DNA of 63,602 bases from an uncultured Candidatus Saccharibacteria bacterium. GTDB taxonomy: Bacteria; Patescibacteriota; Doudnabacteria; UBA920. Position numbers and translations under genes: made by a program. The first letter of the stretch is position 1. Each line of letters begins with the position of its first letter. Location: the NCBI GenBank assembly GCA_964617815.1, contig CAZTXY010000004.1, positions 1 through 63,602 of the forward strand, read 5' to 3'. The notes beneath the pieces were generated by a model. That model saw nothing but the letters and a program-made list of their open reading frames with translations. It was not told where the DNA came from and searched no databases. This document shows, piece by piece, positions 17,126-63,602 of the stretch.

Positions 17126-17332
17126 TTACTGAACAGGTGCGAACCTTCCGGGATTCAGGATCTCCCAAAGTCCGGCGCGAGTCAGCTCGAGAGGCTGACC
17201 TTGTCCAATCTGGACAAGGCGGGTGGGGCGTTCGTGGGCACGCTTCCAGTTCACTGATTCGAGAAACTCTCCAAAGTTCGCCCTCGTGACTTCAGTGAGA
17301 TCGACAGTTATGATGTCCCTTTCGGAATTCAT
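17126..17332 (-). CDS. GC-rich ORFan, 68 aa
   Basis: AAGGAGG lies 4 nt upstream of the ATG at 17332. A candidate TTGCAA-N17-TAAACT promoter lies upstream. It is the internal start of track ORF 17126..17635. Confidence 0.5.
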   Translation of the reverse strand: MNSERDIITVDLTEVTRANFGEFLESVNWKRAHERPTRLVQIGQGQPLELTRAGLWEILNPGRFAPVQ

Positions 17333-17410
17333 AGGTCCTCCTTCTTGACTATCGACAGGATTTTGCTCAAGTTTAACTGAAAGCCTGACTTTTTGCAAGC
17401 AAAGAGAAAA

Positions 17411-17454
17411 GGCGAGCTGTGTCGGTAGCGGTAAAAACCGAACACTAGCTCGCC
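17411..17454 (-). terminator. Terminator of the 116-aa/54-aa gene pair
   Basis: ggcgagct...agctcgcc long stem followed, on the minus strand, by TTTTCTCTTT. Confidence 0.6.
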
Positions 17455-17477
17455 TTTTGGTCGCCGCCTGAGCTGTC

Positions 17478-17642
17478 TCAGGCGGCCGAAACTGAATCCT
17501 CCGTGTCGTTGTCGATTGCGACTCCGCAAACCGTGCAGCAGCCGCTACCCGAGTTGCAGATGTCGCAGAAGTCTGTGCCACACTCGTCGCAGTGGTACTT
17601 GTCGGCACCAGTGTTGCGGCATGATACGCATTCATCCAGCAT
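17478..17642 (-). CDS. GC-rich Cys-rich ORFan, 54 aa (four CxxC-type pairs)
   Basis: MLDECVSCRNTGADKYHCDECGTDFCDICNSGSGCCTVCG. The ATG is 8 nt after the upstream stop codon. A hairpin overlaps its stop codon. Confidence 0.5.
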   Translation of the reverse strand: MLDECVSCRNTGADKYHCDECGTDFCDICNSGSGCCTVCGVAIDNDTEDSVSAA

Positions 17643-17650
17643 CAGCGATT

Positions 17651-18001
17651 TTATTGCTTTCGCCACATGGCCTCCATGCCCTGCATGAGCAGGGTATTCT
17701 TGACCCACACAACGGTTGTGGGCTTGAGTTTTCCCAAGTCCACGACGTAGGTGCTCGTGGGTCTTTCCAGACGGACGAACGAGTGAGTTGCTGGCTCCTC
17801 GTCGCGTTCCAGCAGGATCTGCTGGACCGTGACTTTCACGGTCCCAAGCAGTTTCCTGAGTTTCCCGCGGTCGATGCTCGAGAGCTCCTCGCTCGAAGCA
17901 TCGAATGTAAGCTTGTCTTTCCCGAATGAGAGCTCAAAGGCTCCGTCTGCGAGCTCGGAGAGCTCCCCTGGGCCGGCGACGCTTCGTGTTTCCATCGCCA
18001 T
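17651..18001 (-). CDS. GC-rich ORFan, 116 aa
   Basis: AAAGGAGA RBS, AT-rich host-like upstream region, GC3-rich codons. Confidence 0.5.
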   Translation of the reverse strand: MAMETRSVAGPGELSELADGAFELSFGKDKLTFDASSEELSSIDRGKLRKLLGTVKVTVQQILLERDEEPATHSFVRLERPTSTYVVDLGKLKPTTVVWVKNTLLMQGMEAMWRKQ

Positions 18002-39021: not shown

Positions 39022-39135
39022 ATGAGATTAAAACTTTTGCAGGAATAATTGTGGTTATTAAGTTGGTTTAGTTGCCACGATCATTCCCGCAATAGTGGGA
39101 AGCAGATTCGAATTTTTTGGTGTGAGAGGTACGAG

Positions 39136-40083
39136 ATGGAGATGATGACGACCAAGCGCCTTGTCATCGTTGGAAAGAATCACAAGCCGCTCCATGGAGC
39201 GGCCCTCAGCGCGCGCGAGCGCAAGATCAAGAGCAAGCTCGAAACTCTCCGAGCTGAGGGTGTGAGCTACACCACCTCGGAAGGCTGGGAGATCGAAAAG
39301 GCAGAGAAGGCGCGCAAGCGTTTGCTCGCGCAGAATCCGCCGTGTGGGAAGTGCCACGAGAATACGCCGCAGGCGGAGCTCGAGGGCAACGAAGGCTGGT
39401 GCTACGATTGTCGGGAAGCCGACAATCAGCGCTTGGCCGAAATCGAGCGTGCTGGCAAACAGCGGCTGGCCGACATCGAGTGGGCGAAGGTCATCGAGGC
39501 GTCGAAGCGGCCCTGCAAGGGCTGCCAGACGCGGATCGAGCCGTTCGCCTACAAGAATGGCAAGGGATTTTGCAATGCGGACTGCAGGTCGCAGTTTCGG
39601 GCAAACAAGCTCGAAGCCGAGCGTCTCGCGGTCATCGAAGCGAGCAAGGAGCCTTGCTCGGAGTGCGAGCAGCGTTTCATCCCCGAGGACCTTAAGTTCG
39701 GCTGGTGCGTGTCCTGCAAGGATGCACTCACTGCCGGACAGTTCGCATCCTGCGAGGGATGTGGAAAGCGTCACGGATACAGCGAGCTCGAGACCATCGA
39801 GATCAGCGGTGTCGAGCGCATGATCTGCATCAACAACGACGACTGTCTCGAGCTGGCATTCAGCCCGAAGCTCGAGCCGGCACATACTGTTGCTGAGACC
39901 GCGACTCCCGCGGTGACCATCGCGAAGAGGAAACTCCACGCGATGATCACGTACGGCGTCAGCGAGGATGGGCGCCCCAACAACCGGCGCAAGCCCAAGG
40001 TGCCGAAGTCGGCGCGCAAGAAGGGCACCAAGCCGCAGGAAAGCGGCAAGAAGGGCAAGGGCAAGGCCGCCTCCGGCGGCTAG
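39136..40083 (+). CDS. GC-rich ORFan: repeated CxxC zinc-ribbon-like modules plus Lys/Arg-rich tail (315 aa)
   Basis: MEMMTTKRL start after GAGAGG. Four CxxC-x(9-25)-C..C modules, two preceded by IEASK(R/E)PC. C-terminal KPKVPKSARKKGTKPQESGKKGKGK tail. One line counted by hand gave 63% GC. Confidence 0.55.
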   Translation: MEMMTTKRLVIVGKNHKPLHGAALSARERKIKSKLETLRAEGVSYTTSEGWEIEKAEKARKRLLAQNPPCGKCHENTPQAELEGNEGWCYDCREADNQRLAEIERAGKQRLADIEWAKVIEASKRPCKGCQTRIEPFAYKNGKGFCNADCRSQFRANKLEAERLAVIEASKEPCSECEQRFIPEDLKFGWCVSCKDALTAGQFASCEGCGKRHGYSELETIEISGVERMICINNDDCLELAFSPKLEPAHTVAETATPAVTIAKRKLHAMITYGVSEDGRPNNRRKPKVPKSARKKGTKPQESGKKGKGKAASGG

Positions 40084-53975: not shown

Positions 53976-55109
53976 ATGGACACTTTATTCCTTGAACAAT
54001 TACTTTTGGAGTTAAAAACCCGCGGTGGGGGGATGGTTATTGGTGATAACGATCAATTTAAAGCAGTAGTTTTAAGTTTAGATAAGTATAATGAATTATT
54101 GCTTCAATCTGGTAAGGTTGTAGAGGATGTAATAACCAAAGTCAATAATCAAACTGTTTTGGTTACTGGGGGTGCTGGATATATTGGTAGTCATTGCACC
54201 AGACAACTTTTGGCAGCCGGTTATAAGGTCATTGTTTTAGACAACTTAAGCTCTGGAAAAAGAGAAAATATCCCTGCCGAGGCTATTTTTATTGAAGGAG
54301 ACTACGGAGATTTGGACCTATTGGCTGAACTTTTTAGCCGAGAAGCCGTATCTTCCGTAATTCATTTTGCCGCTAGCATTTTAGTGCAGGAATCTTTGCA
54401 AAATCCAAGTGAGTATTTTACCAATAATGTTCTAAAAACAACCCATCTTTTAGCTGCAATGGGTGAGTTTGGGATTAAACGGATTCTATTTTCATCAACA
54501 GCTGGGGTCTATGGCCCAAGTAATGAGGCCTTAACAGAGACAAGTAGCACTAACCCAATCAATCCCTATTCTGCTGGAAAATTGGCCGTGGAAGAACTGC
54601 TGAAATACCAAGCTTTGTGGTGCGGTTGGACTGTTACAGTCATGCGTTCCTTTAACGCCGCAGGAAGCGACCCAGAGGCCCTTATTCGGCCTACAGTGGC
54701 CGCTTCTATTACCTGGCGACTAATGGATGTGGCTTTGGGTAAAACGGATAAATTCGTGGTTTTTGGCCGAGACCAAGCAACTCGAGACGGGACTACAGTG
54801 CGAGACTATATTCATGTGCAAGACATTGCTAAAGCCTTTGCTTTGGCATTAGATTTGCCGCAGGAAAGACCTTTTGAAATTTACAACGTTGGTAGCGGAC
54901 AGGGGACAAGTATTACCCAGTTAATTGATGTGGCAATAGAAACTACAAATAGGATGATTCCAATTGAGTACGTTAACTCTGTACCCGGTGATATTCCTTT
55001 GTCTTTGGCTAATATAAATAAAATTCAAACTAAGCTGGGTTTTGAACCAAGCAATAGTACACTAGAAAACATTTTTAAAACCAGCTGGCACGCCGCCAAG
55101 CATCAGTAG
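53976..55109 (+). CDS. galE: UDP-glucose 4-epimerase with ~55-aa N-terminal extension
   Basis: VLVTGGAGYIGSH Rossmann motif and the SDR Y..K region. The extension has a Phd/YefM-like MVIGDNDQFKAVVLSLDKYNELL segment. Confidence 0.85.
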   Translation: MDTLFLEQLLLELKTRGGGMVIGDNDQFKAVVLSLDKYNELLLQSGKVVEDVITKVNNQTVLVTGGAGYIGSHCTRQLLAAGYKVIVLDNLSSGKRENIPAEAIFIEGDYGDLDLLAELFSREAVSSVIHFAASILVQESLQNPSEYFTNNVLKTTHLLAAMGEFGIKRILFSSTAGVYGPSNEALTETSSTNPINPYSAGKLAVEELLKYQALWCGWTVTVMRSFNAAGSDPEALIRPTVAASITWRLMDVALGKTDKFVVFGRDQATRDGTTVRDYIHVQDIAKAFALALDLPQERPFEIYNVGSGQGTSITQLIDVAIETTNRMIPIEYVNSVPGDIPLSLANINKIQTKLGFEPSNSTLENIFKTSWHAAKHQ

Positions 55110-55125
55110 CAAATTTTATCCAGAT

Positions 55126-55153
55126 TGTCATCCTGAACGGAGTGAAGGATCTC
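55126..55153. repeat. CTGTCAT-family arm
   Basis: tgtcatcctgaacggagtgaaggatctc. Confidence 0.85.
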
Positions 55154-55191
55154 AAATACTGACAGCGATTACACACGAGCAAAAAACTATA

Positions 55192-55228
55192 AAAGCCAAT
55201 CGGTCAATTTCTGACCCTTGGCTTTTTT
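55192..55228 (+). terminator. Terminator after galE
   Basis: aagccaa...ttggctt stem with an inner ggtca/tgacc stem, plus a T-run. Confidence 0.7.
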
Positions 55229-55254
55229 GTAAATATAAAATAAATTTTTTGAGT

Positions 55255-55329
55255 TGGTAGCGGTACGGGGAATCGAACCCCGATTACATGGATGAGAACC
55301 ATGCGTCCTAACCATTAGACGATACCGCC
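55255..55329 (-). tRNA. tRNA-Glu (anticodon CUC)
   Basis: 75-nt cloverleaf folded by hand from the reverse complement. Anticodon stem catgg/ccatg, loop TTCTCAT. CCA is encoded. Confidence 0.85.
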
Positions 55330-55506
55330 GTAAGTTGTCTAAATATTGGAAATCCTACTAATTTTAGCAGAAGTTGCTTAGTTGATAAAGAGGCATTTTT
55401 CAGCTGTTTATATTAATTTTCTGGGCACTAGCGACTGGGAACTAGCTACTCTTGTAGTCATGTATGCTATAATAAAAAGACAAGAGAGTTATTACTTGAC
55501 ATAGCT

Positions 55507-55626
55507 ATGTATAAATATATTCTATTAGTAGGGTTAGTTTTTTTAGCAGTGGGTTGCGAGAATGTTGAACTTAAGCGTGAAGTACCAACTTCACCTGTGG
55601 AATCATTCCAACCACTTCCGAAATAA
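55507..55626 (+). CDS. Possible 39-aa lipoprotein (below the track cutoff)
   Basis: MYKYILLVGLVFLAVGC, a lipobox-like LAVGC. Confidence 0.3.
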   Translation: MYKYILLVGLVFLAVGCENVELKREVPTSPVESFQPLPK

Positions 55627-55634
55627 GAACAAAA

Positions 55635-56030
55635 ATGGCCAACACACAACTTGTTGATTATATATTAAAAGCACGCGCTGCGCGCGCTACCGAAGATCAA
55701 ATTCGTCTAATTCTGTCCGACCGTGGCTGGAGCATTGGCGATGTAGATGACGCTTTTGCTATGGCCTCAAAAATGGGTAGCACTGGTGGTGGTAAAAGCT
55801 TTCCAATTAAGTACATCGCTTTTTCTCTAGCAGTTATTTTAATAGCCGCAGGCGGATACTTTGCCTATCAATTTTTGAGCAATCTTAAAGGAAAAGGTGT
55901 GGATGCAGACGCCAGTAAAATTAAAGTTGAATGCCTTCCAGATAAAGACTATGCTTATCCAGACAAGTGTGCCAGAGACAAGTATCAAAAAGAAGAACCA
56001 TCTAAACCAAACTCTCCTTCATTACGCTAA
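55635..56030 (+). CDS. Hypothetical single-TM protein (131 aa)
   Basis: ORF with background composition and a central TM helix. Confidence 0.45.
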   Translation: MANTQLVDYILKARAARATEDQIRLILSDRGWSIGDVDDAFAMASKMGSTGGGKSFPIKYIAFSLAVILIAAGGYFAYQFLSNLKGKGVDADASKIKVECLPDKDYAYPDKCARDKYQKEEPSKPNSPSLR

Positions 56031-56038
56031 ACCAAATT

Positions 56039-56626
56039 TTAAATTTCTGAAGCTGCGCTAGGATTTTCGTCCAGCGCAGTTTTGTTTTCATCGCTCAGCG
56101 CCGGAGTTTGGGGCAAGCTAATTTTACTAACTAAAGTTTCAAAATCTGGTAAGTCAGTCATGGAAGTTAAGCCAAGTTGCTGCATAAATTCTGTTGTGAC
56201 TTGGTAATAGTTACTGCGACCATCGTCTGGATTGGAAATTTTTTCAATTAATCCACGCATCAACAAATGACGGATGCTGTATTGTGAATTTACTCCCCGA
56301 ATTGCTTCAATTTCAGATTTAGCGATAGGTTGGCGGTAGGCAATGATTGCTAAAACTTCAACTGTGGCTTCGGTTAATTTTTCGCGAAGGTCAGCGTTTA
56401 AAAAGTTTTTAACCATTTCGCTATTTTCGCTATGGGTTGCTAATTGATACTGACCATTGGCCTCTAGTAACACAATTCCGTTGTCCTTAAGTGAGTTAAG
56501 TAGTTCTCCAAGCGCTGTGCGAATGTCGCCTTCGCCCGCACCGGTAGCTTTGGCAAGTTGATTAATAGAAAGGGGTTTGTTTGAGACAAACAGAATACTT
56601 TGCAGTTGGGATTGTAATTTGTTCAT
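56039..56626 (-). CDS. scpB: Segregation and condensation protein B
   Basis: Two wHTH halves, EVLAIIAYRQPIAKSEIEAIRGV motif. Confidence 0.85.
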   Translation of the reverse strand: MNKLQSQLQSILFVSNKPLSINQLAKATGAGEGDIRTALGELLNSLKDNGIVLLEANGQYQLATHSENSEMVKNFLNADLREKLTEATVEVLAIIAYRQPIAKSEIEAIRGVNSQYSIRHLLMRGLIEKISNPDDGRSNYYQVTTEFMQQLGLTSMTDLPDFETLVSKISLPQTPALSDENKTALDENPSAASEI

Positions 56627-56632
56627 AAAATA

Positions 56633-56866
56633 TTAATTACCGCTTATAATCATCCAAATACCAAAAGCGACTAAGATAAGTGTATAAAAAATAATTTGAG
56701 GTTTGCTGGTAAAGTTTGACTGAGTGTTTGGTCTTAAACTTTCCGGTTTGACTAGTTCAAGTTTAAGTAGGTAGCGCGCTACAAAGTTATAGTATGGTCG
56801 CCAAAGTAGCAGGCCATAAAGCGTCGCAAATGCTAGAAATAATATTCCGATAGAAAGTTTAGACAT
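56633..56866 (-). CDS. Small two-TM membrane protein inserted between scpA and scpB
   Basis: 77-aa ORF, hydrophobic at both ends. Confidence 0.4.
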   Translation of the reverse strand: MSKLSIGILFLAFATLYGLLLWRPYYNFVARYLLKLELVKPESLRPNTQSNFTSKPQIIFYTLILVAFGIWMIISGN

Positions 56867-56871
56867 ATAAA

Positions 56872-56902
56872 TAGTTTTTAGTACCTAGTAACTAGTCGCT
56901 AG
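56872..56902. repeat. Heptad array overlapping the scpA stop
   Basis: TAG at 56872, 56879, 56886, 56893 and 56900 on the plus strand. The CTAG units give stop codons on both strands. Confidence 0.85.
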
Positions 56903-57623
56903 TGACTTCTGTTTTATTGTATTGTTTAATGGTAATGTCAGTGAATAGTGTTTCCTGTTCCACCGTAAAGATTTTTTGTTTAATTAGTTCAAGTAAAGCC
57001 AAAAAAGTAATAATCATCTCAGGTTTATTCTTTGCACTTGCCATAATGTCACTAAGTTTGGTTTCAATCTGGTTACTTAACTGAGTTTGAAGTTGGTCAA
57101 TTTTTTCTTGAATAGAAATGGCTTCTCGAATTTTGGCTTTGGGTAAATTGTCTAGTTCCGCTAGGCCCTCAAGGACTCCCATTACTGAGTCGTGAAGCAT
57201 GCTGGCAGTTACAGTCCTGTCAGGGAGAAAACTAATGCGTTGGCTAAATACAAGTAGTCTGGTAAAACTTTGACTACCTCTAGCGTCCAACATTTTGAGG
57301 TGCTTTCCCGCTTCTTTAAACTGTTTGTAAAGCAGGAGACGTTCTGTTAAGTCCATGCCTACTTCCTCTTCCTCTTGTTGGATTTCCAAGGAAGGTAAGA
57401 TGGCTTTAGATTTTATGACAAGCAATTTGGCAGCGATGGACAGGTAATCTGCAAGCAGGGAAGCATCTACTTTCTCCAGTTGTTTTATATAAGTTAAAAA
57501 CTGCTCAGTGACATTGGCAAGAGCAATTTGGGTAATGTCTAACTTCTGCTCTTCAATTAACGAGAGCAGTAAGTCTAATGGTCCTTCAAACTGATGTTGT
57601 TGTAATTTTATGCTATGACTCAT
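56892..57623 (-). CDS. scpA: Segregation and condensation protein A
   Basis: FEGPLDLLLSLIEEQKLDITQIALANVTEQF kleisin N-terminal motif. Confidence 0.85.
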   Translation of the reverse strand: MSHSIKLQQHQFEGPLDLLLSLIEEQKLDITQIALANVTEQFLTYIKQLEKVDASLLADYLSIAAKLLVIKSKAILPSLEIQQEEEEVGMDLTERLLLYKQFKEAGKHLKMLDARGSQSFTRLLVFSQRISFLPDRTVTASMLHDSVMGVLEGLAELDNLPKAKIREAISIQEKIDQLQTQLSNQIETKLSDIMASAKNKPEMIITFLALLELIKQKIFTVEQETLFTDITIKQYNKTEVTSD

Positions 57624-57629
57624 TTTTGT

Positions 57630-57667
57630 TTCAGAGTTCTAAGTACCAAGTACTCAGTACTAAGTAC
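57630..57667. repeat. Heptad array, GTACTNN variant, between aspS stop and scpA start
   Basis: The minus strand reads gtactta gtactga gtacttg gtactta gaactct. Confidence 0.8.
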
Positions 57668-59438
57668 TCTTTTTCGGCAAATCCAGTTTAATGTGAAGTT
57701 CTTTTAATTGTTTTTCGTCAACACTACTTGGTGCATCCATCATGACGTCTTCGGCTGAACCATTTTTTGGAAAGGCAATAACTTCGCGGATGTTAGGTTC
57801 GTTTTCCAGAAGCATTAAGAGGCGGTCAATCCCAGGAGCAAAACCACCGTGTGGTGGCGCGCCATACTCAAAAGCGCGGATCATAGCTCCAAATTTTTCA
57901 TCCACAACTTCTTTGCTATAACCAACAATCTCAAAGGCTTTGTAGAGAATTTCTGGGTTGTAGTTTCGAATCGCACCACTAGAAAGTTCTAAGCCGTTGG
58001 CAATAATATCGTACTGGTCAGCCATGATTTCTAGAGGGTCCCCGGTTTCCAAAGCCTTCAGGCCACCTATAGGCATAGAGAATGGGTTGTGCATAAAGTC
58101 AATTTTTTTGGCCTTATCATCGTACTCATACATTGGGAAATCGGTAATCCAAGCCCATGCAACAATATCAGGATCCTTTAGTCCAAAGTCGTCTGCAAGC
58201 TGGTTTCGCAGTTTGCCAAGTACTTTGTTCACAACAGTTCGATCATCTGCGCCAAAGAAAATAACGTCACCTGTTTTAGCGCCAGTTTTTGTTACGATTA
58301 CGCTAATTTCTTGTTCAGATAGGAATTTTAAAATAGGGGACTTCATACCATCGTTGTCCAAAACAATATAAGCTAAACCACCCGCGCCTTCTTTTTTTAC
58401 AAATTCAGTTAAAGTGTCAATTTGGCTACGTGTAAGCTTACTACCATTTTCAAGACACAAAGCTTTCACCACACCCCCACCTTTGATTGCGTTGGCAAAC
58501 ACACTAAATTCGGTATTGGCTAAATCCGTTGTTAAGTCTACTAACTGCATATCAAAACGTAAGTCAGGACGGTCATTGCCATATTTTTCCATGGCCTCAA
58601 GGTAAGGAAGACGTGGAAAAGGGTTTTGCATCACTTTTTTACCAGCCCAGTCTTCGGTTAGCTTGATAAACAGTGGTTCCATTTCTTGAAAAACAATTTC
58701 ACTTTTGTCGGCAAATGCAATTTCTAAATCGAGTTGATAAAATTCACCAGGGCTTCGGTCGGCTCTTGGGTCTTCATCTCTAAAACATGGAGCAATTTGA
58801 AAATATTTTGGTACGCCAGCAACCATCAACAATTGCTTGAATTGCTGAGGGGCTTGAGGGAGGGCGTAAAATTTTCCCGGGTGCAGGCGAGAGGGAACAA
58901 GAAAATCGCGGGCACCTTCTGGAGAAGAGCTGGTTAAAATGGGTGTGTTAATTTCAATAAAGTCATGTTCGTCCATGTAGTCACGAATAAACTTTATCAT
59001 TTTGTGACGTTGCTTGAGCATCCTTTGCATCTTCTCTCGACGCAAATCTAAAAAGCGAAACTTCAAACGAAGCTCTTCGTTGATTGTTTCTTCTTGGTGC
59101 ATAATCTGGAATGGCAGGGGTTTGCTCGCGTTTAAAACTGTAAGTTTTTCAACTACAATTTCTATTGTACCAGTTTCAATGTTTTGGTTTACTAAATCTG
59201 GCGCTCGTTCGGTAACAGTACCAGTAGCTGTAATAACAAATTCGTCTCGAATTTTCTGCGCAACTTCAAAAACATCCTTGTTTTCTGGATGAATGGTAAG
59301 TTGGACAATGCCGGTGTGGTCGCGAAGGTCAATAAAAATAAGTCCGCCGTGGTCGCGAGTAGACGCGCTCCAGCCCGACAGCGTGACTTCTTCTCCAATT
59401 TTTCCTAAAGTTTCAGTAGCGAGTGTTCGAGTTTCCAT
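57660..59438 (-). CDS. aspS: Aspartyl-tRNA synthetase
   Basis: [13 protein letters not shown] (OB), [10 protein letters not shown] (motif 2) and [10 protein letters not shown] (motif 3). The start is moved to METRT, because the track N-terminus enters a repeat. Confidence 0.9.
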
Positions 59439-59473
59439 GATTTCTGTGTTTCTGTCATCCCGCACATCTTGTG

Positions 59474-59535
59474 CTGTCATCCTGAACGCAGTGAAGGATC
59501 TCTGCAGAGATTCCTCGACAAGCTCGGAATGACAG
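59474..59535. repeat. CTGTCAT-family element, complete
   Basis: ctgtcatcctgaacgcagtgaaggatctc tgca gagattcctcgacaagctcggaatgacag. Confidence 0.9.
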
Positions 59536-59610
59536 TGAGAAGTAAGGACGAGAGTAAAAGATACGTTAAATACTGTAAAATTATAGCAAAATAAGCCAAT
59601 TTAGACAAAT

Positions 59611-59654
59611 GAAAAAGGGATCGTGAGCATACAGCGGTATGACACTAATCCCTT
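59611..59654 (-). terminator. Terminator at the left end of island F unit 3
   Basis: aagggat...atccctt stem with an inner catac/gtatg stem, followed on the minus strand by TTTTT. Confidence 0.6.
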
Positions 59655-60979
59655 TATCGGTTTGGCCCGTTTTGATATAGGCCTTAACAATTGTCCTCTA
59701 TTTGGTTGTTGTCGGCGGGCTGTGCCCGCCGACTGCCCAATCGTGGGCTGCTGACCATCGATCGACCGCCACAGATTGCTCCGTGGACATGTCTGCGAAG
59801 GTCTCGTTCACCTTCTGTATGCGTGGATTCGGGCCACACGCCCATCCCGGCTATTCATTTGTCCCGCGTGCCCTGGCACTCATGGCCAGGGGCTTTCAAG
59901 ACGTACCGGTTTAGGTCCGGCAACCATCGTGTCAGTCAGTCGAAGGTTCTTGGCAAATGGCCTACCGGCTTAGAGGGCCGGAGCTAAATGCCGTGACGAT
60001 TTTAACATGTCGACCTCCTGCCATCTCTGGTTGGAGTTTGCCCGAGGCGACGGAGCGGGGAACATAGCCCCACCCCGCGCCTGAGGCATGCCCGTTTCCG
60101 GGCCAATGGTGGCCTTCGTCGGATCCAATGGGCCACCGGTCGCGCGTCGGATAACTACAAGGGAGCCGACGCACTCCTCACGCCCTGCCGCCTTTACTAC
60201 TCGCCGGGCGACAGTCATTCCGGCCACAGCCTGCCAATTGCAAACTCCCCTCGAGAATGCTTTTGGCAGACTGCAACGCGCCGGATTCGCAAAAAAAGTA
60301 CTACTTACTAACACTAACCTTGATAACGCTCGTTATCACCACGAGCGGGATGGCGATTATCCGTTCGCTTCGGGTTCTTTCGGCCGTCTGCCCAATGTGT
60401 GGGCTTGGCGAGGCTAGAAATCGAGCTCACTTCTGTCGGTCTGTGACCTGTCGAGTGATGCTAGATCTAGCGGTTTCGCCTTTTCCTTTGCGGCCTAGAG
60501 GTTTGTGGCTTTCGCCTTCGTCGTTGTGCCGCCAGAGACTGAAATCAATGGCGGATGAGCAGAGGCATCTGCCTCATTTCTACCTCCATTTCCGTCAGTA
60601 GGGGGGACCGACACACCAACCCTCCTTGAGGGGTTGTTTGTTGGTGTGCTCCCGAGTGGGCAAGCGCACTGGTAATGGTTGCTCCGTTCTCTGGAGACAT
60701 TGACCAGTGCAGGCGGTAGCCGCCCCAGCATTGCTAGGGTGGCGTTCCCGAAACGGGATTCGCCATGATATCACCTCGCCCGTATCGCTGGGCCAGCGCG
60801 GTGAGCCGTCATCGATCGCTCGAAGTGGATGGGGATGTTGTCATCCCGCCGGCGCGACAGTCTGTCGCGTCGAATCCGTCTTCTTAGCGGTGCGAGAACG
60901 CGCTCGCCAGAGAGGCAATTCATGCACTCAGCAACGGCTGAGCGCTCTTCGTCGCGGTCGCCGACCCGATGCCGTGGGT

Positions 60980-61084
60980 CTAGCGGCCGACGCGCATGCC
61001 GACGCAGCTGCCGTCGTCGATCGTGACGAGGCGATTTTCTTTCAACATGTTGAGGGGCGTTGCCGCCCGGTACTGGTTCTTCAT
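60980..61084 (-). CDS. Mini-ORF, 34 aa, first cistron of unit 3
   Basis: GGAGG-caac-ATG. Peptide MKNQYRAATPLNMLKENRLVTIDDGSCVGMRVGR. A perfect 16-nt palindrome (cctcgcctaggcgagg) lies just upstream. Confidence 0.25.
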   Translation of the reverse strand: MKNQYRAATPLNMLKENRLVTIDDGSCVGMRVGR

Positions 61085-61323
61085 GTTGCCTCCGCATCCT
61101 CGCCTAGGCGAGGAAATCGAGGTTCGCGTCAGGACTTTGCCTGACCGCGAAACACACTGAGAAAAAAGAACGAACTTGCTATCGGTGTTGTCGCACTACG
61201 AATCAAAAAGGCAAAACCTCTTTAATCGTCGTAGTATACGAGGCAACAAAAAAGTAATTAGTGAAAGTAGCTTTCTTGAAACTAATTATTTTTTTACTGC
61301 CCCTATACAAAACATAATTTCAT

Positions 61324-61352
61324 ATATTAGCAAATATTATAGCTTTTGTCAA
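61324..61352 (-). promoter_or_regulatory. Promoter TTGACA-N17-TAATAT (unit 3)
   Basis: -35 at 61347-61352 and -10 at 61324-61329, read on the minus strand. It lies in the AT-rich spacer inside the island. Confidence 0.65.
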
Positions 61353-61399
61353 GTACCATTCTAAAATGCTGAAAATGCTTATTTATAAGGTAAAAGGAA

Positions 61400-61421
61400 G
61401 GCCGACACAGTTGCGTCGGCC
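61400..61421 (-). terminator. Terminator of unit 2
   Basis: ggccgac-acagttgc-gtcggcc stem, followed on the minus strand by TTCCTTTTA. Confidence 0.6.
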
Positions 61422-61715
61422 TCTGAAACAGGGTCCACCGAATCGGTGCGAAGCTCATCGAACGAACGTGCTAACGAACGGCCGTCGATGGTTTGATGTT
61501 GGTGGAGCCCAAAGTGATAATCCCTCCGAGGAATTGTGTGGTTCCGGGTTACGGAACCTGAGTGGTGAAGTGGCACAGGGCTTGAGCTAAGAGAGTTAGC
61601 CCTAGGCGCCTATAGTGGCCCAGATGCGGGAGTCCGCAGATCCAGGCCCGTGGTTCGCCGCGTCGCAAATCCGGGGCAACTCAAGTTCCGAAAATGCAAC
61701 CGACGAATGTCGAGA
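61422..61715 (-). ncRNA. Candidate structured 3' region of unit 2
   Basis: ~290 nt of GC-rich sequence between the 68-aa ORF stop and the terminator. Hairpins include agggct...agccct and ggttccg-taac-ccggaacc. No plausible ORF. Confidence 0.3.
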
Positions 61716-61922
61716 TTACAGCAGCCGAAGCGGCCGCTTGTCGACGCTATCGCTCCCAAGAACATCTTGGATGAAGCTCCAGCGCCCCTCACGTCGGCCC
61801 CCGAACTTGGGTGGAACTCGATTCACACCTTTTTCGGTGGTTCCAGGCCTGTCTTGGCCTGGATGAGTGTCGTCCGATGCCGGGACTTCAGTGTCCGGCG
61901 CAGTTGCAGTCGCATTGCTCAT
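61716..61922 (-). CDS. ORFan, 68 aa, disordered-looking (unit 2)
   Basis: TTGACA-N17-TAGTAT promoter, with AAGGAG 7 nt before the ATG. Peptide MSNATATAPDTEVPASDDTHPGQDRPG...RWSFIQDVLG. Confidence 0.4.
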   Translation of the reverse strand: MSNATATAPDTEVPASDDTHPGQDRPGTTEKGVNRVPPKFGGRREGRWSFIQDVLGSDSVDKRPLRLL

Positions 61923-61948
61923 CTGCGTTCTCCTTTGTGACTTTCAAC

Positions 61949-61977
61949 ATACTACAGCTTTTGTTATGTTTTGTCAA
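61949..61977 (-). promoter_or_regulatory. Promoter TTGACA-N17-TAGTAT (unit 2)
   Basis: -35 at 61972-61977 and -10 at 61949-61954, read on the minus strand. Confidence 0.65.
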
Positions 61978-61986
61978 CGTAACGGG

Positions 61987-62023
61987 AGACCCCCAACGGA
62001 GGGGAATCTTCCGTTGGGGGTCT
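61987..62023. other. 13-bp perfect hairpin between unit 1 terminator and unit 2 promoter
   Basis: agacccccaacgg-aggggaatctt-ccgttgggggtct. Confidence 0.7.
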
Positions 62024-62033
62024 TGGGAATGCG

Positions 62034-62087
62034 AGAAAAAAAGCAGCGCTGAGTCACTCACCGGTAAAGGTGACGTGACTCAGCGCT
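62034..62087 (-). terminator. Strong terminator of unit 1 (13 plus 5 bp stem, T-run)
   Basis: agcgctgagtcac(tcacc...ggtga)gtgactcagcgct, preceded on the plus strand by an A-run. Confidence 0.85.
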
Positions 62088-62380
62088 TAAATGCAGGGCA
62101 GTTTAGAGTTGGGCGACTCAGGTTAGCCCTGGTTGGCGTTTAGGAGGCCCAAACGCCAAACAAAATTCCTCCAGTCATGAAATGTTAAACCCTTCGACCG
62201 TGCCACCGTACGCATGATCGAGGCCTTCGCGGGGTTCACCGCAAGCCCATCCTGGGCTCGCAGAGTTGCTTTCTTGGTTTTGGATATTTGTTGGTGTTAA
62301 TATCCTGCCTTCAGGCGGATCTTCTTTAACCATCTTAGTTGCAGTATCTGGCAATGTTTTTCTCCTTCTTGTATTCAAGT
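62088..62380 (-). ncRNA. Candidate ~300-nt transcript (unit 1), coding status unclear
   Basis: It lies between the promoter at 62387-62415 and the terminator. Internal 9-bp hairpin ttggcgttt/aaacgccaa (62132-62158). The only ORF (track 62175..62378) lacks an RBS and looks non-protein-like. Confidence 0.3.
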
Positions 62381-62386
62381 CGAGTC

Positions 62387-62415
62387 ATGGTAAGGTTTTT
62401 TTCGACTTTTGTCAA
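62387..62415 (-). promoter_or_regulatory. Promoter TTGACA-N17-TACCAT (unit 1)
   Basis: -35 at 62410-62415 and a weaker -10 at 62387-62392, read on the minus strand. Confidence 0.45.
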
Positions 62416-62457
62416 GACTTTGCAGTGCTTAGCCAAGAAGTGGGGTATAATAAACTT

Positions 62458-62560
62458 ATGCTTAAAAAAATTGTGCTAGACCTTGAAACACATCCATCCT
62501 ACGCTAAAGCTTCGGAGGATTTATTTGAAAAGTTGATTATCAGTTGCAATGGAGGCGCTC
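62458..62560 (+). pseudogene. Duplicated 5' end (11 codons) of the downstream exonuclease gene followed by a degenerate repeat arm
   Basis: 62458-62490 and 62561-62593 both encode MLKKIVLDLET using different synonymous codons. 62489-62523 resembles a CTGTCAT arm. Confidence 0.5.
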
Positions 62561-63139
62561 ATGCTTAAAAAGATAGTTTTAGATTTAGAAACTCAAAATT
62601 TATTTCAAGATGTTGGGGGGCGGGGAAAAAATCATCTATTAAAAATTTCCGTTTGTGGAATTTATGAATATAGTAAAAATGAATATTCGATTTACGAAGA
62701 ATTAGAATTGCCGAAGTTGGCGTCAATTTTGCAGTCAGCTGATCAGATTATTGGTTTTAATATTAAAAGTTTTGACTTTGAAGTCCTACAGCCGTACTTA
62801 GACTTTGATATTTTTGAGCTTCCTTACTACGATATATTGGAAGAGATCAACAGAAGCCTTGGACGGCGCATTAGTTTGGAAACCGTGGCACAAGGAACGC
62901 TTGGAAGTGGGAAGTCTGGAAGTGGCAAAGAAGCGGTGTTATATTATCGCAGTGGGCGAATGGATTTACTAAAAAAGTATTGTTTGGACGACGTTAAAGT
63001 GACCAAACAAGTTTACGAGTATGCCTTGAAGAATCAAAAATTATTGTATCGTGATTTTTTTAATTTAGCTGAAATCCCAATTGTTTGCCAAGAGCCTGAT
63101 CCTCGAGTGGGTGTGCAACATCAGTCGGTGTTGTTTTAG
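62561..63139 (+). CDS. RNase H-like / DEDD-type 3'-5' exonuclease domain protein
   Basis: VLDLETQN (Exo I-like motif), C-terminal YCLDDV. GGAGG lies 5 nt before the ATG. Confidence 0.55.
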   Translation: MLKKIVLDLETQNLFQDVGGRGKNHLLKISVCGIYEYSKNEYSIYEELELPKLASILQSADQIIGFNIKSFDFEVLQPYLDFDIFELPYYDILEEINRSLGRRISLETVAQGTLGSGKSGSGKEAVLYYRSGRMDLLKKYCLDDVKVTKQVYEYALKNQKLLYRDFFNLAEIPIVCQEPDPRVGVQHQSVLF

Positions 63140-63161
63140 CATTAAGTAGTATGTTCACGTG

Positions 63162-63247
63162 CTGTCATTCCGATCCGCCAGCCGGCGGACGGGGAATCTC
63201 TTGCTCTTTTGGGATCCTTCTCCGCCGGAGGCGGATCAGGATGACAG
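63162..63247. repeat. CTGTCAT-family element, complete ('ccgcc-NGGC-ggcgg' subtype)
   Basis: ctgtcattccgatccgccagccggcggacggggaatctc ... gggatccttctccgccggaggcggatcaggatgacag. Confidence 0.9.
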
Positions 63248-63270
63248 TGCTGGGGAAGAGTCCTTAACTC

Positions 63271-63602
63271 ATGATTTTTTATTTAAAAAAAATATTACTA
63301 TTGAGCTTAGGTTTTGTTAGCCTAATTATTTTTGTATATGTATTGCATCTGGTGTTCACCGGCAAAATTATTCTTCCTCAAGAATTTGTTTTTGCTAATT
63401 TTAGAGTTCGCTATTATGGGTTGGCTTTGGCTTTGGCTACTGCTAGCGCCTATGCTATTGGTTTATACAGAGCAAAGGATTACGGCTTAGTTCATAAAAC
63501 AGCGGAGAGTATAATGCTTTTGGCTATTATTGGTGGTTTTATCGGGGCGAGGCTTTATCATGTTGTAGTAGAGTTTTCTTTGTATCAGAATAATTTATGG
63601 GA
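63271..63602 (+). CDS. lgt: Prolipoprotein diacylglyceryl transferase, 3'-partial at window edge
   Basis: Translated by hand. ...FRVRYYGLALALA...IIGGFIGARLYHV fits the Lgt N-terminal region. The frame is open to the window end. Confidence 0.6.
   Translation, partial: MIFYLKKILLLSLGFVSLIIFVYVLHLVFTGKIILPQEFVFANFRVRYYGLALALATASAYAIGLYRAKDYGLVHKTAESIMLLAIIGGFIGARLYHVVVEFSLYQNNLW

Follow-up and report, generated by a model that had tools for sequence, protein, structure and literature searches.

Unit 3 is a stretch of about 1.7 kb on the minus strand, 5' of the aspartyl-tRNA synthetase gene aspS, at positions 59612-61352 of the window, that is, of the whole 63,602-nucleotide stretch of contig CAZTXY010000004.1 that was analysed. 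From 5' to 3' it is arranged as a leader, a short open reading frame (sORF1), a domain A, a U-tract linker, a domain B and a terminator (Table 1), and its GC content is 58% in a window of about 40%; the block between 59.65 and 62.3 kb as a whole (52-58% GC) contains no long open reading frame (ORF). An initial annotation, made from the sequence alone, had described an AT-rich leader followed by about 1.45 kb of GC-rich sequence, an organisation that holds on the minus strand, and helices at 61125-61149, 61098-61113, 60666-60710, 60612-60648 and 59711-59733, all of which are found at those positions. Selection in Unit 3 keeps an RNA fold rather than a protein.

The promoter assigned to Unit 3 is close to the consensus and almost invariant across L027, L039, L041 and L042 (five lineages counting the window; the L-numbers are labels of the related contigs or loci that were compared with it). 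The leader is AU-rich and comprises a 64-nt stem-loop plus three further hairpins. The long stem-loop, which is helix 2 of the covariation set with three pairs showing double changes, folds with a z-score of -5.3 in the window and of -4.2 in L027, despite a differing inner sequence. It had initially been taken for an attenuator-like hairpin with a T-run; the conserved stem-loop is real, but within its stem the T-run is base-paired to an A-run lying upstream, so that it is not a clean attenuator. In the window copy the inner stem is made of AU pairs only, no alternative fold was identified for the element, and it may be either a 5' stabiliser or a leaky terminator. At the position of hairpin 61123-61151, L027 forms CAGAGC-CGAAA-GCUUUG. 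At the opposite end of Unit 3, the intrinsic terminator has a folding z-score of -5.5 in the window and -6.5 in L030, and its helix 61 includes two pairs with double changes. Both the terminator and the long leader stem-loop keep their shape across lineages while their sequence changes.

The GC-rich body falls into two domains. Within domain B, a three-way junction can be drawn around 60011-60283 and a multi-helix region at 59812-59945. Each domain finishes with an AGCCCAC-N4/5-TGGGCAG hairpin followed by a second hairpin, and this motif, found twice against 0.01 occurrences expected, is confined to Unit 3 homologues. Of the two copies of a recurring small hairpin reported initially, the one at 60388-60405 is in place and the other, given as 59743-59759, actually lies 10 nt away. 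Beyond this 22-nt motif, local alignment of domain A against domain B, the GC-rich units upstream and the other GC-rich islands of the window revealed nothing in common. Since both domains end in the same hairpin motif, a composition of two modules, or even of two RNAs, is supported, as had been proposed from an AT-rich interruption with a T7 run, located at 60291-60297. In three lineages a tract of U7-U9 with a weak AU hairpin parts the two GC-rich blocks (U8 for L027, U9 for L041), and the weak AU hairpin that precedes the tract is a different one in each; the folding z-score of the linker hairpin alone is not significant. As a separate observation, positions 60245-60266 (CCAAAAGCATTCTCGAGGGGAG) match exactly, over 22 nt, the coding sequence of a ParA-like ATPase in contigs of about 60% GC (L035, L037, L038); the flanks are unalignable and the window frame has no ParA-like peptide, and the match was set aside as due to chance.

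Table 1. Features of Unit 3 and its flanks (positions in the window)
Feature	Position	Strand	Details
RNase H-like gene (192-196 aa, Pfam RNase_H_2)	62549/62561-63139	plus	other flank of the locus
sigma-70-type promoter	61324-61352	minus	-35 TTGACA 61352-61347; 17-nt spacer with extended TG; -10 TAATAT 61329-61324; predicted start near 61317
long 5' leader stem-loop, 64 nt	61240-61303	minus	A-run pairs with T-run; closed by GGCAG/GUUGCC; inverted repeat
second leader hairpin	61190-61239	minus	helix 3: 21 pairs, 2 with double changes
hairpin (initially 61125-61149)	61123-61151	minus	helix 5: 12 pairs, 3 with double changes
hairpin on 16-nt palindrome CCTCGCCTAGGCGAGG (61098-61113)	61096-61116	minus	helix 6: 7 pairs, 2 with double changes
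sORF1 with Shine-Dalgarno GGAGG (61093-61089)	60980-61093	minus	ATG 61084 to TAG 60980; 34 codons: MKNQYRAATPLNMLKENRLVTIDDGSCVGMRVGR
domain A	60326-60972	minus	GC-rich, multi-helix; helices 7-35; several GNRA-type loops; includes helices 60666-60710 and 60612-60648
mini-ORF MRQMPLLIRH, 10-11 codons	60545-60587	minus	putative; GGAGG-5-ATG (ATG 60577); overlaps covarying hairpin 60562-60575
motif hairpin AGCCCACACATTGGGCAG	60388-60405	minus	near 3' end of domain A
AU-rich linker	60291-60320	minus	weak AU hairpin, then U7 (60297-60291); candidate leaky terminator or processing site
domain B	59711-60283	minus	GC-rich, multi-helix; helices 36-58; ends in hairpin 59711-59733
mini-ORF of 12 codons, MLKSSRHLAPAL	59970-60018	minus	putative; GGAGG-5-ATG (ATG 60008)
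motif hairpin AGCCCACGATTGGGCAG	59733-59749	minus	near 3' end of domain B; helix 57
intrinsic terminator	59612-59653	minus	hairpin 59617-59652 plus U5 at 59616-59612
aspS promoter	59608-59580	minus	begins 4 nt past the Unit 3 terminator; conserved
aspS (aspartyl-tRNA synthetase)	57660-59438/59480	minus	3' neighbour of Unit 3

From the perspective of coding capacity, Unit 3 differs from its neighbour aspS in several respects. Between lineages it shows indels of 1, 2, 4, 5 and 14 nt, i.e. not multiples of three, and an identity of 77-85% with indels, compared with 85-91% ungapped for aspS. Codon periodicity is absent from about 85% of its length (z from -0.9 to 1.8 outside sORF1, versus 1.8-6.6 in aspS), and it contains no ORF of more than 149 codons; an ORF of 141 aa called in L027 is frame-shifted in the other lineages and is thus not conserved. 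Searches of Pfam and NCBIfam gave no match for any ORF of Unit 3, short peptides included, and a six-frame pseudo-protein compared with 5.8 billion proteins had no match among the best 8000 candidates. The indel lengths, the missing periodicity and the lack of protein matches rule against a protein gene or a recent pseudogene.

Preservation of the fold is apparent at several scales. In 300-nt windows covering 59450-61700 on the minus strand, folding z-scores range from -2.4 to -7.6 with respect to dinucleotide shuffles, versus about 0 in aspS, and 16 of 16 windows of 200 nt (60 shuffles) are negative, with a mean of about -2.8; a coarse scan of the whole window finds ten consecutive strongly folding windows at the Unit 3 region. 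The second approach is independent of any chosen structure. In this energy test, the natural substitutions of a homologue were put into the window sequence and the resulting folding energy was compared with that obtained after changes of the same number and kind at random sites, using as nulls either random sites, random changes confined to 30-nt bins (domain B) or a 40-nt local null (leader, domain A and the start of domain B). In domain B, 100 and 115 natural changes shift the energy from -314 to -310 and -311 kcal/mol, respectively, versus -269 and -261 kcal/mol with matched random changes (z of -5.0 and -6.0, or of -4.3 and -6.0 when these are confined to 30-nt bins), and the same test applied to aspS as a control yields z-scores of -0.4 and -1.7. 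Under the 40-nt null, z lies between -3.2 and -4.7 for the leader (four lineages) and between -2.3 and -2.9 for the initial 420 nt of domain B (three lineages), and the part of domain A located 3' of sORF1 scores -4.3 (L041), -2.8 (L039), -1.9 (L027) and -1.7 (L042); a fourth lineage of domain B follows the same trend. The flanks of the sORF1 segment show fold preservation.

Covariation was evaluated on an eight-row alignment (A4) with a piecewise RNAalifold structure of 447 pairs, in which 94.9% of the cells are paired. Double changes affect 29 pairs, compared with 12.5 +/- 2.4 in shuffled alignments (0 of 500 reach this value) and 4-6 in slid controls, a difference that is somewhat inflated because the structure was derived from the same alignment. 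Among the changes is a GC to AU replacement in helix 25 (60562-60575). With regard to the strand, there are 188 G-U cells versus 34 A-C cells in the minus sense, and domain B folds at -314 kcal/mol in this sense versus -285 kcal/mol for the other strand (about 30 kcal/mol more stable), both of which fit the strand given by the promoter and the terminator. The checks that the initial annotation had suggested (folding energy against dinucleotide shuffles, homologues and covariation) have thus all come out in favour of a conserved fold: folding is better than in the shuffles, homologues exist in about five lineages, and compensatory pairs are in excess, with substitutions that preserve the structure.

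The same annotation saw no real ORF in this region, which does not apply to sORF1. Its start, frame and stop are the same in four lineages, with 34 codons in the window, 30 in L027, 33 in L039 and 28 in L042; its variable core (alignment columns 281-370) has only 43-64% nucleotide identity to the homologues; and with a period-3 z-score of 4.3-4.7 it accounts for the sole codon periodicity in Unit 3. These, together with its Shine-Dalgarno site, are attributes of small protein genes, and sORF1 is taken to be a real, putatively translated, small gene. In L041 it has been cleanly deleted together with the Shine-Dalgarno site and the stop, and the promoter, the leader and both domains are retained; since this lineage keeps everything else, sORF1 is accessory to the RNA, as well as hypervariable and optional. 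Residues 9-28 of its peptide (60983-61084; TPLNMLKENRLVTIDDGSCV) resemble a repeat of about 20 aa ('TDPNALNYNPLATIDDGSC') of PKD-domain proteins with a type IX secretion system (T9SS) sorting tail. The matches in the protein library have a summed E-value of 5e-12, the single matches are weak and the motif is poorly kept in other sORF1 versions; a relationship through this '...ATIDDGSC' repeat was rejected, as the E-value sums many short-repeat matches. Two mini-ORFs (Table 1) lie further downstream. The one of 12 codons keeps its start and stop in five lineages, and its codons 2-6 vary without indels, although the conservation of either says little because both sit in conserved, partly base-paired sequence. 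A role of Unit 3 as a Shine-Dalgarno-rich ribosome sponge was discarded, as GGAGG occurs 4 times versus 2.5 expected.

About five lineages, all close relatives, carry Unit 3, and in every case it is located between the RNase H-like gene and aspS. Contigs L030 and L027-L029 were reached through the two closest aspartyl-tRNA synthetases (AspRS) of a large protein collection (identities of 95% and 92%), and their alignments with the block span up to 2.2 kb at about 81%. The strain variants L033, L034 and L036 came from metagenome contigs scanned with a 20-mer, and a search with the RNase H-like protein and its 90% cluster added L039, L041, L042 and L043. The arrangement recurs in NCBI, JGI, ENA and Logan assemblies and is therefore not an assembly artefact. 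None of 26 aspS loci from species-representative genomes (best AspRS identity 83%, a partial match) has Unit 3. Among these genomes the best matches of the AspRS of the window, at 75-83% identity, carry the names Candidatus Doudnabacteria or Patescibacteria or, from some depositors, Saccharibacteria; the host is a Doudnabacteria-like bacterium of the Candidate Phyla Radiation (CPR; Patescibacteria). In L031, the next relative (AspRS 82% identical), the RNase H-like gene and aspS are 120 nt apart and Unit 3 is missing, and the length of this spacer varies across Doudnabacteria from about 60 to 2740 nt. Given this wide variation and the short spacer of the next relative, Unit 3 is an accessory insertion at a variable spot. 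The spacers of L001-L012, L024, L025, L031 and L032 have no detectable mutual similarity, many of them fold strongly (z down to -10), and the one in L025 encodes a DUF559-like endonuclease; variable, structured insertions seem to have a hot spot at this site.

Among the carriers, helices and modules have been swapped between lineages. L033 and L036 are mostly L027-like and then become identical to the window, in places to L030, within domain B (alignment A3, columns ~270-580), so that they are either recombinants or assembly mosaics. In L041 (positions 1-234) domain B is joined directly to the middle of the ribosomal protein S13 gene, a junction probably due to chimeric assembly. Seven contigs (L030, L033, L034, L036, L039, L042 and L043), obtained in different projects, stop inside Unit 3, which suggests that co-occurring strain variants break assemblies there. 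Outside this group, the 3-kb block had no blastn similarity in collections of phages and plasmids, two conserved 19-21-mers had no match in viral contigs, and a conserved 20-mer searched in metagenome contigs recovered the L027-type strain only, plus a chance 22-nt match in the ParA gene of a high-GC organism. An nhmmer profile of Unit 3 run against the fetched loci and the window detected no paralogue or distant copy.

Nor was Unit 3 recognised as a known RNA or element. With the Rfam 15 covariance models, which cover among others OLE, GOLLD, ROOL, HEARO, raiA, RNase P, transfer-messenger RNA (tmRNA), SRP, 6S, ribosomal RNA (rRNA), T-box and riboswitch families, three transfer RNAs (tRNAs) alone pass the gathering threshold in the whole window. 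In a permissive search of 55000-63602, of Unit 3 alone and of L027, every match had an E-value of at least 0.6 and no family came near its gathering threshold in both the window and L027; Rfam models found nothing in 12 related loci either. ARAGORN predicted no tRNA or tmRNA in 59400-62600. Models of group II intron domains V/VI and I-IV did not match even at E-values up to 10, and a group II intron was rejected on further grounds: Unit 3 lies between genes, has its own promoter and terminator and no Pfam match, and no reverse transcriptase is found nearby. The search for repeat arrays (CRISPR, TIGR) returned only a trivial 12-nt repeat of 2.7 copies. As for transposons or miniature inverted-repeat transposable elements, no repeat pair brackets 59.6-62.44 kb, and the flanks hold a single duplication, in which 38 nt from the 5' end of the RNase H-like gene are repeated. 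Extended complementarity of Unit 3 to the rest of the 63.6-kb window was not seen. Judged by these comparisons, Unit 3 is a predicted new structured RNA family restricted to one narrow CPR clade.

The explanation favoured here, held to be probable but far from assured, is that Unit 3 is a separate minus-strand gene for a large two-domain structured RNA, extending from about 61317 to 59612 and possibly of dual function. A strong sigma-70 promoter would drive it and an intrinsic terminator would end the transcript just before the aspS promoter. The predicted transcript would begin with an AU-rich leader bearing the long conserved stem-loop, may carry a fast-evolving peptide ORF of 28-34 codons that was lost in one lineage, and would continue into two multi-helix domains, both GC-rich and about 0.65 kb long, with a U-rich linker between them as a possible leaky terminator or cleavage site. 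The gene would belong to one group of related Doudnabacteria lineages with mosaic exchange among them. The folded RNA might act in trans as a stable structural RNA, either as a protein scaffold or as an RNA-only assembly, with the sORF1 peptide as an accessory second function. A more ambitious version is put forward only tentatively, as doubtful though worth naming: Unit 3 could be the first member of a new class of very large, ornate, two-domain RNA machines (a ribozyme, or a self-assembling or protein-scaffolding particle like ROOL, GOLLD or OLE), located on a recombining accessory island of an episymbiotic CPR lineage and with an optional hypervariable peptide in the same transcript.

Several points weigh against the reading as a structured RNA gene. 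In the coarse scan, about 21% of the windows elsewhere also fall below -3 on the better strand, a background that reflects the use of only 15 shuffles and the frequency of terminators, and folding z-scores alone are for this reason not decisive. The sORF1 segment and the 5' part of domain A show no fold preservation (folding z of -0.17 in L027). The covariation was tested on a structure from its own alignment and draws on about five lineages of 72-86% identity, some of them mosaic, a homologue set so shallow that the statistics are modest. When the full-length minimum-energy fold was checked pair by pair against L027, single changes kept pairing in 26% of cases, which equals chance; global folding was consequently dropped and only local helices are claimed. 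The start and end of the transcript, as well as the question of one or two RNAs, are read from sequence signals. Three of the four GGAGG motifs have an ATG at 5 nt, which is unlikely by chance and resembles an mRNA, no partner protein or target was found, and a selfish or transient element would likewise be compatible with the narrow clade and the hot-spot location.

Some of these points feed directly into alternative explanations. Unit 3 might be mainly an mRNA for very small peptides (sORF1 and perhaps the ORFs of 10 and 12 codons), the rest being a large 3' untranslated or intercistronic region that controls stability or translation, or else a dual-function RNA of the RNAIII type. The GGAGG-5-ATG start of sORF1, its frame and stop kept in four lineages in spite of the low identity of its core, its periodicity, the repeated Shine-Dalgarno-ATG spacing and the conservation of the mini-ORFs speak for it; nevertheless it seems rather unlikely, as L041 lacks sORF1 and its signals yet keeps promoter, leader and both domains, about 85% of Unit 3 is aperiodic but under fold-preserving selection, the mini-ORFs carry little weight within conserved sequence, and the peptides match no protein family, sharing only the short TIDDGSC repeat with unrelated secreted proteins. 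An RNA of a selfish or mobile element without a protein gene (ORF-less and intron-like, or satellite-like), inserted between the RNase H-like gene and aspS and with a fold that serves its own propagation, would account for the 58% GC in a genome of about 40%, for the absence from the nearest outgroup L031 (120-nt spacer) and the spacers of 60 to 2740 nt among relatives, for the modules swapped, inserted or deleted between lineages and for the duplicated 5' end of the neighbouring gene. It is considered improbable in view of the lack of terminal inverted or direct repeats at the block borders, of any integrase, reverse transcriptase or transposase nearby and of an Rfam intron match even at E-values up to 10, and because Unit 3 is single-copy in each locus set, with no further copy in the window or in the loci fetched, carries a promoter and a terminator itself and invariably occupies the same site.

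The preserved fold opposes the view that Unit 3 is decaying foreign DNA, for instance a dead operon, without function and folding as a by-product of composition. A GC-rich island in an AT-rich genome, three Shine-Dalgarno-ATG sites about 500 nt apart that are reminiscent of former gene starts, and the protein-coding nature of two other GC-rich islands of the window would be expected from such a relic; natural substitutions, however, keep the fold far better than matched random ones, unlike in aspS, compensatory pairs are in excess, promoter and terminator are conserved, and there is neither residual codon periodicity nor protein similarity in any frame, which makes this very improbable. Least credible of all, in the present assessment, is a giant cis-acting leader that regulates aspS: its location directly upstream and on the same strand is as expected, but the strong terminator (59612-59653) and then the separate conserved aspS promoter (59608-59580) intervene, no T-box or riboswitch matches, and close relatives run aspS with a spacer of 60-160 nt.

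If Unit 3 is indeed a structured RNA gene, it can be compared with several known systems. Apart from ribosomal RNAs, few bacterial RNAs are known to exceed about 500 nt, and several of these proved to be large RNA assemblies or ribonucleoprotein complexes. With OLE, GOLLD, ROOL, raiA-motif RNA and HEARO it shares the character of a GC-rich multi-helix RNA of hundreds of nucleotides in an AT-richer genome, with its own (here predicted) promoter and terminator, GNRA-type loops, compensatory helices, mostly no protein product and an uninformative context. In contrast to them, it is larger (1.7 kb as a whole, about 0.65 kb for each of its two domains), it occurs in one narrow CPR clade and not in many species, it carries a short ORF, it lies in a variable spacer and not near phage genes or tRNAs, and it matches none of their covariance models even at E-values up to 10. 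Staphylococcus aureus RNAIII, of 514 nt, encodes the 26-aa delta-haemolysin, and SR1 and SgrS are also dual-function regulatory RNAs. Unit 3 resembles these as a structured, independently transcribed RNA (its transcription being predicted) with a short Shine-Dalgarno ORF much smaller than the structured part; it is three times longer than RNAIII, has no sequence or model similarity to any of the three and no target complementarity within the window, and its ORF is dispensable in one lineage and only putatively translated. Like ORF-less and circularly permuted group II introns, it is a large GC-rich structured RNA without a long ORF, of patchy distribution and possibly mobile origin, from which it differs by the absence of domain V/VI or I-IV model matches, of a reverse transcriptase nearby and of a host gene, and by its own promoter and terminator. 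Introns of these two kinds are the subject of PMC8637638.

The literature searches made for this analysis returned no large RNA described from CPR bacteria, and to our knowledge none of this kind has been described from the Candidate Phyla Radiation. CPR genomes are tiny and leave little room for non-coding DNA, so that 1.7 kb of it (3 kb with the neighbouring units) is notable. If transcribed, Unit 3 would rank among the largest structured RNAs other than rRNA, and its natural variants (domain swap, helix replacements and ORF loss) already mark dispensable parts. Its narrow distribution and a function that is still hypothetical limit what is claimed for it at present.

The surroundings of Unit 3 offer further observations. 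Upstream, 61395-62420 of the minus strand holds one or two more GC-rich units. Sites resembling promoters are located there at 62415 and 61977, and a terminator at 61398-61423; the folding of these units is strong (z down to -9.8), codon periodicity is lacking, and perfect inverted repeats of 13-14 bp occupy 61987-62023 and 62045-62087. Compared with L027, the window carries an additional 193 nt in these units (62180-62373), and 61712-61937 is swapped for 292 unalignable nt. A promoter at 61949-61969, 615 nt upstream, resembles that of Unit 3 (81% over 21 nt). On the far side, a duplication covers the initial 11 codons (MLKKIVLDLET) of the RNase H-like gene, at 62455-62492 and 62558-62595, as a 38-nt copy 103 nt apart with 76% identity; the upstream copy is preceded by a good -10 box and meets a stop after 36 codons, L027 being arranged likewise, and the duplication looks like the scar of an insertion or recombination.

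Elsewhere in the window, the GC-rich islands at 17126-17990 and 39049-40083 (55-59% GC) have codon periodicity z-scores of up to 11-12 and no above-threshold Pfam match. Because this periodicity is strong they are taken as ordinary genes, probably protein-coding and of foreign origin, and the proposal that all GC-rich islands of the window are RNA genes was rejected. Finally, a short dispersed palindromic element ending in TCAGGATGACA / GTCATYC is present at 59476-59533 and at 11 other sites (e.g. 3455, 7056, 12808, 30026, 47125, 53633, 55126 and 63236), its 11-mer occurring 12 times versus 0.7 expected; a complete copy in the aspS leader, just 3' of Unit 3, forms a hairpin, and a related copy lies past the RNase H-like gene in L039.

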